Shown: one piece after another, positions 27,001 to 33,000 of the stretch
How positions within the stretch are numbered: the first letter of the stretch is position 1
How the letters are laid out: each line of letters begins with the position of its first letter
Origin: Escherichia phage P13803
DNA: 60,941 nt
Sequence record: HG792102.1
Reading direction: 5' to 3' (one strand)
Made by a program: the position numbers

Positions 27001-30000
27001 GTGGCGGCAGGGCAGAAGTGGTCAGCGATGCGGAGGGAACCGGAGGTAAGGCAGTGAAGCTGACCAAGGAAGCCGGTAAAAGCAGCTGGGTGCTGGAGTA
27101 CGCCGCGGGCAACGGTGCGGCTCTGTTACAGAAAGGGGGGCAGATTCGCTGCCGCTTTAAGGTTTCGGGAGCGCTGGCTGCGAACCAGTATGTTATGGCG
27201 TTTTACTGGCCGGTATCTTCACTGCCACAGGGCGTTGCCCTGACCGGAGACGGGGGGAATAACCTGCTGGCAGCGTTCTACATCCAGACAGATGCAAAAG
27301 ACCTGAATGTGATGTACCACAATGCGAAAGTAGCGACAAACAACCTGAAACTGGGAACCTTTGGCGCATTTGATAACGAATGGCATATGCTGGCTTTCCG
27401 CTTTGCCGGGAATAACAGCCTTCAGGTGACGCCGGTTATTGATGGTCAGGATGGCACACCGTTCACGCTGACGCAGTCACCGGTCAGTGCATTTGCGGCG
27501 GATAAACTGCATGTGACAGACATTACCAGGAATGCGACTTACCCGGTGCTGATTGACAGCATTGCGGTGGAAGTGAACAACGCGGATGCCGCGGCATGAT
27601 AAAAAAAGCCGCCAGTTGCCTGAGACCTCTGGCGGTGTGAGATTCATGGAGAATCAAGGAAAGATACTACCACTTTCGTCATCGGCATTTTTAAATGAAA
27701 ACTGTTTACTTAGTCAACCATAACGGTAAGAAATTATGACATTTCTGAACCAGTTAATGCTGTACTTCTGTACGGTGGTCTGTGTGCTGTATCTCCTTTC
27801 GGGTGGGTACAGGGCCATGCGTGACTTCTGGCGCAGACAGATTGACAAAAGGGCCGCTGAGAAAATCAGCGCCAGTCAGTCAGCCGGAAGCAAACCCGAA
27901 GAGCCGCTCATTTAGCGGCAACTTTCTTAATCACATCTTTCGACGAGAAAATCCCATGTCAGAAATTACATCCCTGGTCACTGCTGAAGCAGTGAAGGAA
28001 GTCCTGCGCTCTGAAGAAGTCCGGAGCGCACTGAAACAGAAACTTCGCCATAACCTGGAAGCGCGTCTTGATGCAGAAGTGGATGCCATTCTGGATGAAC
28101 TGCTGGGCGCACCGGCAGCTCCGGAGCCGGAAGGCATCGCGGGTGAGGGGAGTGCTTCAGATAGCGGTGACCCCACACCGGACAGCGACATGATGATGTA
28201 AGCATGCGTCAGGGACCATCGGTGTGTGCCGGTGGTCTTTTTTATTGTTGTGAGCTTCCGGATTGCGGGAGGCGGGGTATGAACCAGATGGAAAAAATCA
28301 CAACAGGTGTGTCATACACCACGTCAGCGGTGGGAACGGGCTACTGGTTCCTGCAGTTGCTGGACAGGGTTTCCCCGTCTCAGTGGGCGGCAATAGGCGT
28401 GCTGGGGAGTCTGCTGTTTGGTCTGCTGACGTACCTGACGAACCTGTATTTCAAAATCAGAGAGGACAGGCGTAAGGCGGCACGGGGAGAGTAAGCTGAT
28501 GAGCAGGAAACTCCGCTATGGTTTATCGGCTGCCGTTCTGGCGCTGATTGCCGCAGGTGCTTCTGCGCCTGAAATCCTCGACCAGTTTCTGGATGAAAAG
28601 GAAGGCAACCACACCACGGCATACCGTGATGGTGTGGGTATCTGGACCATCTGCCGTGGTGCCACCCAGGTGGATGGTAAGCTTGTCGTCCCCGGCATGA
28701 AGTTGTCGAAGGAAAAATGCGACCAGGTTAACGCCATTGAACGTGATAAGGCGCTGGCATGGGTGGCGAAAAACATCAGAGTGCCACTGACCGAACCTCA
28801 GAAAGCGGGGATCGCGTCATTCTGTCCTTACAACATTGGCCCCGGTAAGTGTTTCCCGTCGACGTTTTATAAACGAATTAATGCAGGCGATCGCAGGGGA
28901 GCGTGTGAAGCGATTCGCTGGTGGATTAAGGACGGTGGCAGAGACTGCCGTATCCGCTCAAATAATTGCTACGGTCAGGTATCCCGTCGCGACCAGGAGA
29001 GTGCGCTGGCATGCTGGGGTATCGACAGGTAGCAGAATATTTTGCTGAAAAATGACGTTTGCTCACGCGGACGGATAACACGAAATCCTGCGAACTGGCA
29101 AAATGCAAGTGAATAAAGTCAGGAAGATTGTTTCACGCTGAGGCACCGTAATGGTGTCTTTGTCATTTCTGCGCTTCGCACAAGCGTAAATAAACCAAAG
29201 AACCTTTCAGGATGAGCCCTGGTGGATAACCGGCAGTGGTCTGGTTAACCCTCTTTGGGCTGGTTATTCCTGTGCGCAGGGTTCATCACTAAAAGGAAAT
29301 AACCGATGAATATGATGACCGTGCCGTTTCACGGCGATTCTCTTTATGTGGTTAACCATAACGGTGAGCCATACGTTCCCATGAAACCTGTCGTTGCGGG
29401 GATGGGGCTGGCCTGGCAATCACAGTTGGCTAAGTTAAGACAGCGTTTTGCGTCAACTATAACGGAAATCGTTATGGTTGCTGAGGATGGGAAACGACGC
29501 AATATGGTGTCCCTGCCACTTCGAAAACTTGCAGGCTGGTTACAAACCATCAATCCCAACAAAGTAAAACCCGAAATCCGCGACAAGGTAATCCAGTATC
29601 AGGAAGAGTGCGACGATGTTCTCTATGAATACTGGACGAAGGGGGGTGTCGTTAATCCCCGTCGAATGAGTGTGATGGAAGAACTCAATCAGGCCTGCGC
29701 TGACATGAAACGGGATAAAAACATTGCCAGTGTGTTTGCTACCGGGCTGAATGAGTGGAAACAGGTTAAAGCCGCGCATGTATCAAAAATCCGCACATTG
29801 ATAAACGAAGCGAATCTGCTGATTGATTTTGTCCTGGCTGATACAGGCAAAGGGAAAATAACAAAGGCGGATTGATGGAGTGGTGGCTAATGATATCGGA
29901 TAAACTCATAACGCTGGCGAAGGGCCTTTGTGTAATCGTCGGTATTTCATTTTCACTAATGCTGGTTGTTCTTTTTCTTTCCATAAACTGGATGGCGTTG

Positions 30001-33000
30001 ACTTCGGCAGGGCTGGTGGGGTGAGCATAAACCGAATGCTTTCCGCGTTTACCGTTATTCTGCTGGTGGTCTGTGGTGCGCTTAGTCTGGGGCTGAATCA
30101 TTACCGTGATAACGCCATCGCTTACAAAGAGCAGCGCGATAAAGCCACATCCATCATCGCAGATATGCAGAAGCGGCAACGTGATGTAGCAGAACTTGAC
30201 GCCAGATACACAAAGGAGCTTGCTGATGCTAATGCGACTATCGAAAGTCTCCGTGCTGATGTTTCTGCTGGGCGTAAGCGCCTGCAAGTCGCCGCCACCT
30301 GTGCAAAGTCAACGACCGGAGCCAGCAGCATGGGCGATGGAGAAAGCCCAGGACTTACAGCAGATGCTGAACTCAATTATTACCGTCTCAGAAGTGGAAT
30401 CGACAAGATAACTGCGCAGGTTAACTACCTGCAGGAATACATCAGGACGCAATGCCTGAAATAATTTTTTTGCAAATCACAAAGTCAATTTAATGAGCCT
30501 CGCGATACGGGGCTTTTTTATGTCCGCAGTAAACGCGCTTCACACGCGCGACTTATGAACACAGAACCTTTCAGGATGACCCTTGAGGATGCCGGTTTGG
30601 TGATCGGTGCCTTTCTGTGGGCCGGAATCCTGTGTGACAAGGTTCATCACTAAAAGGTGTGCACTGATGAATTATCCAACTATCGTTAACGGCATCGATT
30701 TTCGAGATCTTGTTTTTGTGACAGGCAACGAGCCGGTGACGGATACCCGAAAGGTTGCCGTAGCATTTGGCAAAGAACACAAAGATGTATTGCGGAAAAC
30801 AAGAGCCGTTGTTCAACAATGCTCAAAAGAATTTGCAGAGCGCAATTTTGCGCTTTGCTATGAAAACAATGAGTTACAGAACGGTAAACCCCAGCCCATA
30901 TATCGAATGACAAAAGACGGTTGGACGATGTTGGTATTTGGTTTTACGGGGAAGGCTGCTATGACCTTTAAGGAAGCGTACATTCAGGCTTTCAACTGGA
31001 TGGCTGAGCTTATTCAGCAAGGTCTGGCGAATCTGGAGGCGGAGCGCAACGCTGTAATGCTGGAGTACATGAAAGAGAAAGATGTCGCCAGTATGTCAGG
31101 TCGTTTGCTCAATCGCTGGGGCAGGGTGAAGAAGCCTCAGTTGCTGGCAAGGCTGGACAGGCTGGAGCAGCAGGGGCAGATTGCGTTACCCGGATTTGAT
31201 AAAGGCATTTCAGCCTGACATAGCCATGCGCCGTATCGTCGCCGTATTCCCGCATTAACAGAGACTGCAGCCACCTTATCTGCGTGAGTGTGCGGGGATA
31301 ATCAAAAACGATGCACACCGGGTTTTCTCATTTTTCACGAGATGGGAGCGATTTCCCGCGAAGCCGCCTGTCCGGTGCGGTGGTGGAAGAAACCGGATAA
31401 AACAACCGCATTGTGCAAATATCGATCAAATATGGTGCTGCTGTGTGAAATCTGAAAAATCACAGCGGTCATTATGCATCAGTTTTTAACACAGGACGTC
31501 AGAAAGTGACATGGCAAAGCTGGACTGGAAAAAGCTGGAGCAGGCATTCCGACGCGAACATGCCGAAACGGGAATAACATTACTGGACTGGTGCCGGAAG
31601 AAAAAGATTAATTACAACACCGCCAGAACCCGTATAAAAATGGGCAAAATCGATCATGAAATTGATCATAAAACCGATCATGAAATCGATCATGACATCT
31701 CAGATGAAGAACCCTGCAATGACGCGGGTTCCGGCGATGAAAAATGCGCAAAAAACTCTGAAAAAAACTGCGCAAATTCGGCAGAAACGAAACGGATTCG
31801 TGGTTCCCGACTTTTACCACCTTCAAACGCTTTTTCTCAGCGAAACACCCACGCCGTAAGACACCGTGGATATGCGAAGTATCTTGAGGCAGATAACCTC
31901 ATGGATGATGCGTCCGACATGGTGCTGTTCGATGAACTGGTGTTCACCCGGGCCCGCGCACTTTCAGTAACTAAGGCACTTAAAGGGATGTTCGCCGACC
32001 TGGAAGAGGCAACTGACGTGGAAACCCGCGTTGCTCTTTACGACAAAATACTCAAAGCTGAACAGGCCCTTGACCGGAATATTGCCCGTATCGAGTCAAT
32101 TGAACGCTCATTGCTGACGCTGGACGTCCTGGCTGAGACAGCACCAAAACTTCGTGCTGACCGGGAAAGAATCAACGCCGCCAGAGATAAACTCAGAGCG
32201 GAAACCGATATTCTGACCAGCCAGCGTCGGGGCGTTGTTACGCCTGTCAGTGACATCGTGTCATCGCTGCATGAAATGAGTAATTCGGGGAGACTGGATG
32301 ACATTCCGGAAGAATGAACCGCGATGTGATGAGCCGTCAGAAATGACCGAGGCTGAACAACGTCTGTTCATCATGACTAAACTGAGCAATCCCTGGTGGC
32401 GGCTCAATCATCTCTACAAAATACAGAACGAAAAAGGTGAACTGGTCACCTTCAGAATGCGACCGGCGCAGCGCCAGTTGTTCCGGAGCATGCACAATAA
32501 AAATATTATCCTGAAAGCGCGCCAGCTGGGATTTTCCACAGCCATTGATATTTATCTTCTCGACCAGGCATTATTCATTCCGCATCTCAAATGCGGGATC
32601 GTCGCTCAGGATAAACAGGCTGCCAGTGAAATTTTCCGCACAAAAATTGCTGTACCGTTTGATCATCTCCCTGACTGGCTGAGAGCCTCATTCACCATCG
32701 TTGAACGTCGTAGCGGTGCCAGCGGTGGCTATATCCTGTTTGGTCACGGCTCGAGTATCCAGGTGGCAACCTCATTCCGTTCAGGTACGGTGCAGCGCCT
32801 GCATATCTCAGAGCACGGCAAAATTTGCGCGAAATATCCGGCTAAGGCGAAAGAACTGCGAACCGGTACGCTTAATGCCGTCTCTGATGAATGCATTATT
32901 TTTGATGAGTCCACTGCTGAAGGCGTGGGTGGTGATTTTTACGAGATGAGTAACCGAGCACAGGAGATCACTGCATCAGGCTTATTGCTGACGGCACAGG

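Follow-up and report, generated by a model that had tools for sequence, protein, structure and literature searches.

Escherichia phage P13803 (sequence record HG792102.1; 60,941 nucleotides (nt), analysed as a whole and here called the window) contains one element of about 140 nt twice, at 29165-29308 (copy 1) and 30529-30669 (copy 2). Each copy is, with a probability that we put at about 0.7 from structural models, a structured, pseudoknotted 5' leader RNA of about 125-140 nt that controls the translation initiation of the next gene, an antirepressor (Ant)-like gene behind copy 1 and a Rha-like gene behind copy 2. Most likely, these models suggest, the leader is a portable lock or switch of translation that acts in cis. 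As far as sequence comparison can establish it, the leader has a covarying fold, sequesters the Shine-Dalgarno sequence (SD), keeps its position relative to terminator and start codon, and is portable.

The duplicated element and its setting

The stretch 28200-31600 of the window is 100% identical to the Shiga toxin (Stx) 2a phages P13363, P13374 and phiON-2011 of E. coli O104:H4. The gene order in NC_018846 is holin, lysozyme, ant, ORF53, Rz-like spanin, Rha-like regulator and terS; neither of the two intergenic stretches with the leader is annotated there. An initial annotation of the window had pointed to a duplicated leader ahead of two regulator genes, and this is borne out by alignment, unique end motifs and covariance models alike. 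The flanking genes are also as described: copy 1 leads into the Ant-like gene, copy 2 into the Rha-like gene, and ORF53 and Rz/Rz1 lie between them.

The copies align over 175 columns with a mean column identity of 78%; blocks at both ends are exact, the middle is variable. In the window, GAACCTTTCAGGATGA is found exactly only at 29200-29215 and 30564-30579, GGTTCATCACTAAAAGG only at 29280-29296 and 30641-30657, while chance would yield 0.39 and 0.18 matches, respectively, with three mismatches allowed. A covariance model built from homologues outside the window (R1) scores copy 2 with 154 bits (30529-30669) and copy 1 with 113 bits (29165-29308); a second model (R2) assigns them 144 and 120 bits.

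Architecture

The general plan comprises a terminator (usual), a G+C hairpin (P1), a C/A-rich linker of 12-16 nt that is essentially devoid of G, and a long interrupted hairpin with a variable apex. A pseudoknot of 5-6 base pairs (bp) joins the whole P1 loop to a 6-nt bulge that the long hairpin forms in its 3' strand, directly before the 3' arm. In the minimum free energy (MFE) folds of both copies, the two conserved ends pair with each other (ACCUUU/AAAGGU, AG/CU, GAUGA/UCAUC, CCUUG/CAAGG), and the SD of the downstream gene lies in the 3' strand. The parts, all on the + strand, are the following.

29140-29170 (+): weak terminator-like hairpin (GAGGCACCGTAATGGTGTCTT + TGTCATTTC) directly upstream of copy 1, from the terminator scan; the same hairpin precedes this leader type in related loci
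29165-29308 (+): complete leader of copy 1, reaching as far as the ATG of the Ant-like gene (covariance models R1, R2)
29171-29187 (+): P1 hairpin of copy 1; stem GCGCUU/AAGCGU; its loop, CGCAC (29177-29181), supplies the pseudoknot with its 5' strand (MFE fold; loop complementary to 29272-29276)
29188-29199 (+): A/C-rich, G-free single-stranded linker of copy 1 (unpaired in folds; composition conserved across types)
29200-29222 (+): 5' arm of copy 1; outer strand GAACCUU 29200-29206, anti-SD CCUUU 29203-29207, non-conserved AUG 29212-29214 (pairs with 29277-29296; covariation)
29223-29271 (+): variable apical domain of copy 1, with a GGAUAACCGG...CUGGUUAUUCC helix and small hairpins (fold and alignment)
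29272-29276 (+): 3' strand of the pseudoknot of copy 1, GUGCG, bulging from the long hairpin on its 3' side (reverse complement of CGCAC in the P1 loop)
29277-29296 (+): 3' arm of copy 1, CAGGGUUCAUCACUAAAAGG; inner strand AGGGUUC 29278-29284, SD AAAGG 29292-29296 (SD pairing probability 0.99; alternative pairing with 29200-29206)
29306-29875 (+): Ant-like gene, the cargo of copy 1 (P22_AR_N + ORF11CD3; Pfam and PHROG matches; ant in NC_018846)
30495-30520 (+): intrinsic terminator (GAGCCUCGCGAUACGGGGCUU + U-run) after Rz, directly upstream of copy 2 (terminator scan)
30529-30669 (+): complete leader of copy 2, reaching as far as the ATG of the Rha-like gene (covariance models R1, R2)
30534-30550 (+): P1 hairpin of copy 2; stem CGCGC/GCGCG, loop UUCACAC, in which UCACAC (30540-30545) is the 5' strand of the pseudoknot (fold and covariation)
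30551-30563 (+): C/A-rich linker of copy 2, ACUUAUGAACACA (unpaired in folds; composition conserved)
30564-30585 (+): 5' arm of copy 2; outer strand GAACCUU 30564-30570, anti-SD CCUUU 30567-30571, AUG 30576-30578, inner strand CCUUG 30581-30585 (fold and covariation)
30586-30631 (+): variable apical domain of copy 2, with an AGGAU..AUCCU helix, CCGG/CCGG and two small hairpins (fold and alignment)
30632-30637 (+): 3' strand of the pseudoknot of copy 2, GUGUGA (complement of 30540-30545; three-state covariation)
30638-30657 (+): 3' arm of copy 2, CAAGGUUCAUCACUAAAAGG; inner strand AAGGUUC 30639-30645, SD AAAGG 30653-30657 (SD pairing probability 1.0; the SD-open alternative fold costs 6.2 kcal/mol)
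30667-31218 (+): Rha-like gene, the cargo of copy 2 (Phage_pRha + ORF11CD3; Pfam and PHROG matches)

Searching the whole window with the covariance models and all filters off revealed no third leader copy. Weak matches at 18025-18132 (+) and 14134-14252 (-) were rejected as extra copies (E 0.09-0.9); the latter, on inspection, has neither P1 nor anti-SD nor pseudoknot.

SD sequestration and covariation

Burial of the SD is a constant of the family. In 41 distinct members the SD has a mean pairing probability of 0.95, as against 0.18 for the AUG, and the spacing between the two is 7-10 nt. The alignment of 41 sequences has 95.6% of the cells of the nested helices paired and compensatory double changes at 21 of the 30 pairs; if the 3' partners are slid by 1-3 columns as a control, at most 46% are paired. 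Compensatory changes affect 7 of 9 pairs of the apical helix (alignment columns 75-84 with 111-121), and in the basal SD helix 2 of 5 pairs have changed on both sides.

The pseudoknot is maintained in the same way. Its canonical form, UCNCAC/GUGNGA, occurs in the states A:U, U:A and G:C, and the pattern recurs on alignment A2. Among the matches listed from IMG/VR, 126 instances could be compared: the middle position reads GUGUG in 48, GUGAG in 36 and GUGCG in 38, each with a complementary P1 loop, and two further instances pair in a register shifted by one (122-124 of 126 complementary). The only breaks among them are one chimera and one deletion. On alignment A4, the model of which does not contain the pseudoknot, 90.7% of its cells are paired, with compensatory changes at 4 of 6 pairs.

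Lower-scoring, divergent copies were found by covariance model in prophage loci, in 16 species-representative genomes, in P22 and in phi80. They have little sequence in common with the window copies and keep every feature. Their pseudoknots read CCGCA/UGCGG, ACGCCC/GGGCGU, UGCCC/GGGCA or GCCCAG/CUGGGC; their arms are rewritten compensatorily (CCUUUCAGAAAGUUGAGCCUG / CAGGCUCAAUUUUCUGAAAGG; GGGUGAGC / GCUCACCC; UUUGGAAUG / CAUUUCAAA), and in the Edwardsiella type even the SD is a different one, UAGGAG, with CCUUA as anti-SD. G.U pairs are present, and the models score the reverse strand at about 20 bits as compared to 100-160 bits for the forward strand, a deficit of roughly 130 bits, which implies that the constraint acts on the sense-strand RNA. 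The initial annotation had named covarying RNA structure as a point to check; it is seen in both the nested helices and the pseudoknot.

Two Edwardsiella loci contain two leaders each, about 310 nt apart (L133:4823-5275 and L132:6982-7434). The first leader of L133 (Edwardsiella ictaluri) fronts a truncated remnant ORF (open reading frame) and is devoid of pseudoknot, inner-helix and alternative-helix complementarity; the first one of L132 has kept the pseudoknot and lost inner-helix and alternative-helix pairing. Judged from the sequences, these losses are consistent with decay after loss of the cargo gene.

No conserved leader peptide

The initial annotation had suggested that each copy may encode a short leader peptide. 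The ORFs themselves are as noted there. In copy 2, 25 codons extend from the ATG at 30576 to the TAA at 30651-30653 (MTLEDAGLVIGAFLWAGILCDKVHH), and the stop abuts the SD; in copy 1 the frame is interrupted, reading MSPGG-stop, and the ...RRVHH frame can only be reached via two frame shifts. A scan of IMG/VR for both end motifs, 50-80 nt apart, yielded at least 120 loci; the matches listed amount to 129 pattern matches (127 without two annotated GenBank phage loci) and 38 distinct sequences. These 38 variants are between 87 and 97 nt long, and the length steps thus are not multiples of three. The ORF that starts at the conserved AUG comprises 5, 11-13, 19, 24-27 or 30 to >45 codons in them, its ends fall in all three frames, the ending ...KVHH is seen in less than half of the instances, and the pseudoknot allele GUGAGA introduces an in-frame UGA. 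Divergent homologues have UUG or GUG in place of AUG, and in P22 a stop follows after three codons. Nor does the internal AUG have a usable SD: an AGG abuts it at a spacing of 0, and both AGG and AUG are paired in a helix of the MFE fold.

Length, frame, stop and start codon of the putative peptide gene accordingly all vary among homologues, and an alignment of the relatives reveals no conserved small-ORF frame. A conserved leader peptide, or attenuation via an upstream ORF (uORF), is not supported, given this variability of frame, length and stop and a start without a usable, conserved ribosome-binding site (RBS). Measured by sequence conservation, a conserved leader peptide is absent from the element.

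The GenBank record of phage vB_EcoS_P32 (KU238068; L124:1481-1600) places a 39-amino-acid "hypothetical protein with putative transmembrane domain" inside the leader that precedes ant. Since the frame is not conserved, this ORF is probably a product of the annotation only. For hits H38-H42, too, the records list a hypothetical protein under the match.

A possible two-state switch

How the leader might work can be outlined as follows. It would be transcribed within the Q-dependent late operon, and the upstream terminator would bar polymerases that are not Q-modified or otherwise not antiterminated. The default fold would lock the SD, so that the potentially harmful morons encoding antirepressor, KilA, Bro, Rha, HNH or TerB proteins would be poorly translated from a very abundant late transcript. 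A conserved direct repeat in the 5' arm, where the outer GARCCUU resembles the inner GA(N)CCUU, would permit a strand exchange: the outer strand, which lies 5' of the anti-SD and overlaps it, could pair with the inner 3' strand AAGGYUC instead, and the SD would be freed. Because re-pairing of the anti-SD strand would open the SD, the leader is probably a two-state switch.

Of 18 distinct combinations of the two strands, 17 can form an SD-open helix of 5-7 bp, and this helix covaries from A:U to G:C with G.U intermediates. In the window it would be built from 30564-30570 with 30639-30645 and from 29200-29206 with 29278-29284. The SD-open fold costs 6.3 kcal/mol on average, with a range of 0.3-14.7. 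The attenuation-like arrangement that had been read into the duplication thereby stands as far as the RNA is concerned, with an SD-burying helix, a covarying pseudoknot and a possible SD-open pairing; the step addressed is translation initiation, however, not transcription termination.

As switching strands, G-free C/A linker and pseudoknot are conserved and the apical domain is variable, a macromolecular trigger is to be expected rather than a small ligand. Candidates would be a 30S subunit that waits on the C/A linker, an RNA, e.g., a small RNA (sRNA), or a protein of the host, for instance integration host factor (IHF). The furthest-reaching version of this idea is a new, widespread class of phage riboregulators, i.e., a pseudoknot-clamped two-state leader that opens the RBS of a moron of the antirepressor, KilA, Bro or Rha type only when a host macromolecule or physiological state allows it (IHF or HU, GcvB on the linker, 30S/S1 standby); on the present models it is a tentative proposal that we would rather doubt than adopt.

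The mean duplex energy of GcvB R1 with the C/A linkers is -17.1 kcal/mol as compared to -12.6 kcal/mol for shuffled sequences, an advantage that is confined to a subset and is absent for copy 1. With linkers of this subset, such as CAUCACAACACAG (L032:3013-3152, L072:2550-2690), the GU-rich R1 of E. coli GcvB reaches -22 to -24 kcal/mol versus about -13 kcal/mol for shuffles. GcvB pairing with the linker may be taken as a weak lead. Inspection of the leader DNA by eye gave no complete IHF consensus; ATCA(A/C) is found repeatedly in the linker, but without a TTR half-site. CsrA sites were dismissed, as divergent types have not kept the GGA motifs CAGGAUGA and GAGGAUG. A promoter of the leader itself was rejected too; there is no sigma-70-like site on the + strand of 28000-32000, and the alignment contains no conserved hexamers.

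Cargo genes and distribution

A strong intrinsic terminator precedes the leader in 66 of 85 distinct contexts, with varying sequence, and most of the remaining ones have the weaker post-endolysin hairpin that is also seen before copy 1. Behind the leader, at least 12 types of cargo gene or domain were encountered: KilA-N, KilA-N + P63C, KilA-N + ORF11CD3, P22_AR_N + ORF11CD3, Phage_pRha with or without ORF11CD3, KilAC (ANT), AntA, Bro-N, HNH_3, TerB and unassigned proteins. In 933W the leader precedes ant. A close relative, L072, encodes an identical Rha protein behind a different leader type (L072:2550-2690), and a chimeric leader is found in L038. With the leader conserved and the cargo varying, the leader also appears to be the 5' boundary for cargo exchange between phages. 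The suggestion that it is a cassette boundary for moron acquisition is therefore apt as a description, in view of the cargo types, the leader swap and the chimera; G.U pairs and pseudoknot tell us that it is not merely a crossover site in DNA.

Both cargo proteins of the window share a C-terminal ORF11CD3 domain and differ in the N-terminal DNA-binding domain (P22_AR_N versus Phage_pRha). One prophage locus, L061 (IMGVR_UViG_643348545_000013), has three leaders of three types at 9813-9947, 3830-3972 and 1348-1492 (-); they front a TerB-like gene, another gene (with a leader of the copy 1 type) and a KilA-N + ORF11CD3 gene. The 165-amino-acid KilA-N cargo of L061 has the domain common to the window cargos as well.

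Exact arms are present in Salmonella, Klebsiella, Raoultella, Citrobacter, Enterobacter and Siccibacter, and also in Serratia, Yersinia pestis, Pantoea, Edwardsiella and an Arsenophonus symbiont. Of 5426 complete E. coli genomes, 809 (about 15%) carry the leader, at 2295 places altogether (median 2, at most 8 per genome); at these places the annotation by PGAP lists nothing. A 392-nt contig assigned to "Xanthomonas pisi" (L137, NZ_JPLE01000286.1) contains a leader of 120.3 bits, the same score as that of window copy 1, and is probably due to contamination of that assembly with an enterobacterial phage.

The rha genes of P22 and phi80, and the RNA P22F

The classical rha genes of P22 and phi80 are preceded by the leader as well. 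R2 matches P22 at 39502-39646 (L144:1503-1647) before rha with 69.5 bits. The P22 leader is of a divergent type, with the arms CCCUUUGGAAUG.../...CAUUUCAAAG and the pseudoknot CCGCA/UGCGG. The annotated starts of both rha genes are GTG codons inside the leader (L144:1576, i.e., 39575 of P22 NC_002371, orf201; L145:43739 in phi80 NC_021190), and that of phi80 falls within the pseudoknot strand. The model implies ATG starts at L144:1645 in P22, 69 nt downstream, and at 43775 in phi80, 36 nt downstream. With their GTG starts inside the leader, the annotations of P22 and phi80 rha look over-extended at the N-terminus.

In the relevant passages of a recent paper, ten small RNAs of P22 are listed, of which the 89-nt P22F is given no known function (Noncoding RNA 2026;12:21, PMC13397905). 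According to the same passages, P22F accumulates in P22-infected cells and in vesicles, and its discoverers suggest an IsrK-like role (PMC13397905). The published sequence coincides exactly with the long hairpin that precedes rha in the P22 leader, and it stops 6 nt short of the rha ATG. The P22F reads imply that the leader RNA exists and is stable enough for detection. P22F is the same element in another phage and, like copy 2, has a rha-type gene downstream; the passages on P22F are silent about structure, pseudoknot, SD sequestration, family or cargo association (PMC13397905).

In hosts deficient in IHF, the rha products of P22 and phi80 are reported to block lytic phage growth (cited in PMC4936722); a note in the phi80 annotation cites the same block.

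Alternative explanations

Several observations weigh against a translational control leader. Taken by itself, copy 2 has a modest fold z-score of -1.6. In the abundant canonical class the basal helix varies little or not at all, and the evidence for it therefore rests on about 8 divergent types from few independent lineages. Since A3 and A4 are alignments fitted to the nested structure, their paired percentages are inflated, though not those of the pseudoknot or the alternative helix. The alternative helix is in part to be expected anyway, as both helices have strands resembling CCUU/AAGG. Finally, the mapped ends of P22F differ from the borders of the element, which makes processing or a role in trans possible.

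This last point leads to the idea that a P22F-like small RNA is processed from the leader and acts in trans on other mRNAs or leader copies, as IsrK does in Gifsy-1. An 89-nt hairpin RNA indeed accumulates in P22-infected cells and vesicles, as stated in the passages quoted (PMC13397905), and as one genome may carry as many as 8 copies (median 2) with identical arms, cross-talk is conceivable. The element, however, is always placed in such a way that its 3' strand serves as SD of the downstream gene at a distance of 7-10 nt from the ATG, as a cis element would require; a target is not known, and structured leaders commonly leave stable fragments as they decay. We regard such a trans-acting RNA as unlikely. 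The chances are slimmer that the leader primarily sets the half-life of the mRNA, be it as a site for RNase III or RNase E or as a protective 5' structure. In its favour, the hairpin is long and nearly perfect, and P22F, a discrete fragment, begins inside the 5' arm and ends between SD and AUG. This explanation, however, does not account for the SD as the constant paired strand, nor for the pseudoknot and the strand-exchange repeat, and by our reasoning the ends of P22F do not have the 2-nt stagger typical of RNase III. About as improbable, if not somewhat more so, is a short uORF, from which the ribosome would start at the NUG of the 5' arm, unwind the hairpin, stop at or near the SD and activate the downstream gene irrespective of the peptide made. 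Copy 2 with its 25 codons and a TAA abutting the SD would fit; a potential start (AUG, GUG or UUG) is found at the matching 5'-arm position in all types seen, and two of three frames reach a TAA at the SD (CACTAAAAGGTAA). Yet ORF length (5 to >45 codons), frame and end point are not conserved, copy 1 halts after 5 codons, and the AUG is without usable SD and buried in a helix. The N of NUG merely covaries with its pairing partner, and the lack of C among about three independent changes is not significant.

A riboswitch that senses a metabolite or an ion would equally have a pseudoknotted fold with a junction, an SD-sequestering helix resembling an expression platform, and an alternative pairing. 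We nevertheless consider it very improbable: Rfam offers no match up to an E value of 10, the apical/junction domain, i.e., the expected aptamer, is the least conserved part and is reduced to a simple hairpin in phi80 copy 2, no conserved unpaired core is visible, and the cargo genes provide no metabolic clue. The poorest candidate, in our opinion, is a recombination boundary ("linker") at the DNA level only, kept alike by exchange between phages and without any function as RNA. Conserved ends with variable middle and cargo would be expected of it, as would chimeric leaders and leader swaps before the same gene. Compensatory changes, however, maintain three helices and a pseudoknot across types with little common sequence; there are G.U pairs and a strong strand asymmetry, the paired partner is always the SD, and the decaying copy next to a pseudogene (L133:4823) has lost its pairings. 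As read from the alignments, covariation largely refutes a mere DNA boundary.

Significance

The element is widespread in the late operons of lambda- and P22-like phages (Stx phages 933W and P13374; P22 and phi80) and across Enterobacterales, yet unannotated and absent from Rfam. It appears to be a common control point for interchangeable phage regulators, namely Ant, KilA-N, Bro-N, Rha, HNH and TerB. We know of no explanation that has been given for the expression of these regulators from late operons. The missing annotation of the leader seems to lie behind two kinds of errors, the starts of rha in P22 and phi80 and the small "transmembrane" ORFs in some Stx phage records. For the RNA P22F, the leader offers a structural explanation. 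If the leader is indeed a two-state riboregulator, it would provide a molecular handle on the roughly 40-year-old Rha phenotype, i.e., the lethality of rha for phage growth in IHF-deficient hosts, and likewise on the late dosing of these regulators by Stx and other lambdoid prophages. The old observation on IHF and rha becomes testable on an RNA of about 140 nt. In evolutionary terms, finally, the leader would be a concrete example of an RNA that regulates and at the same time serves as a recombination joint when morons are exchanged.

Other features of the window

Rfam matches to sRNA-Xcc1 lie at 12985-13068 (-) and 4689-4778 (-), with 79.6 and 65.4 bits. STnc100 (25251-25456, +) adjoins AsxR (25458-25510, -), and three tRNA genes are located at 23594-23842. 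Within terS, four overlapping copies of a 24-nt unit with a spacing of 12 nt (AAAATCGATCATGAAATTGATCAT...) occupy 31646-31705 and encode the repeat IDHEIDHKTDHEIDHD. At 13904-14091 (-), Rfam recognises a C4 antisense RNA (13904-13991) adjoining isrK (14016-14091); by analogy, the pair looks like an RNA control module of the immI type of P1. Control of the leaders in trans by this C4/isrK pair was rejected: Rfam has no C4 or isrK match at the leaders, the duplex energies are no better than those of shuffles in a rough test, and P22 and phi80 carry the leader, too.

Comparison with known systems

With Rfam 15, nothing reaches the gathering score on the leaders, and allowing E values up to 10 yields just three unrelated weak matches in 29000-30800. 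One of them, asX2 on the minus strand of 30495-30573, was discarded, being the terminator read backwards. A pistol-like ribozyme was likewise rejected; the resemblance is topological only, without a match of motif or model. The arm sequences appear in no paper found, and the keyword-searched passages of Weinberg 2017 contain nothing similar. Apart from the read-level detection of P22F, we found no description of the motif, its structure, the family or the association with cargo. By sequence, the leader belongs to none of the c4, sar, IsrK or riboswitch-platform families.

In its predicted action, the leader resembles the c4-icd-ant system of P1/P7, sar-ant of P22 and IsrK-orf45-anrP of Gifsy-1, where genes of the antirepressor type are silenced post-transcriptionally by occlusion of the RBS. 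These systems make use of a separate antisense or trans RNA, those of P1 and Gifsy-1 also of a coupled upstream ORF. In the leader, by contrast, the blocking strand is in cis.

A buried SD, stabilised by tertiary contacts or a pseudoknot, and a competing conformer that would expose it are likewise features of preQ1-II, SAM-II, lambda cIII mRNA and RNA thermometers. The leader differs from them in having neither homology nor a visible conserved ligand pocket, while its switching strands are conserved. Its pseudoknot, moreover, pairs a hairpin loop with a bulge about 90 nt apart, unlike those of preQ1-II and SAM-II.

With lambdoid morons, sequences at module boundaries and integron attC sites, the leader has in common that a short conserved sequence, with conserved ends and a variable middle, stands beside interchangeable cargo of an operon. 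Unlike morons and attC, it is constrained by RNA pairing, as is evident from G.U pairs, pseudoknot and the SD as partner, and, unlike in morons, its terminator is located upstream of the cargo, not downstream. An attC-like site proper, which the leader resembles in topology only, was rejected, since the arms GAACCTTTCAGGATGA and GGTTCATCACTAAAAGG are without RYYYAAC / GTTRRRY cores; an integron integrase was not searched for.

The standby site of tisB is unmasked by processing. With such ribosome standby sites and with C/A-rich enhancers (tisB; ACA motifs, PMC3879156), the leader has in common that a single strand rich in C/A and free of G adjoins the base of a structured RBS. As at standby sites, a 30S subunit could wait on the C/A-rich linker of the leader.

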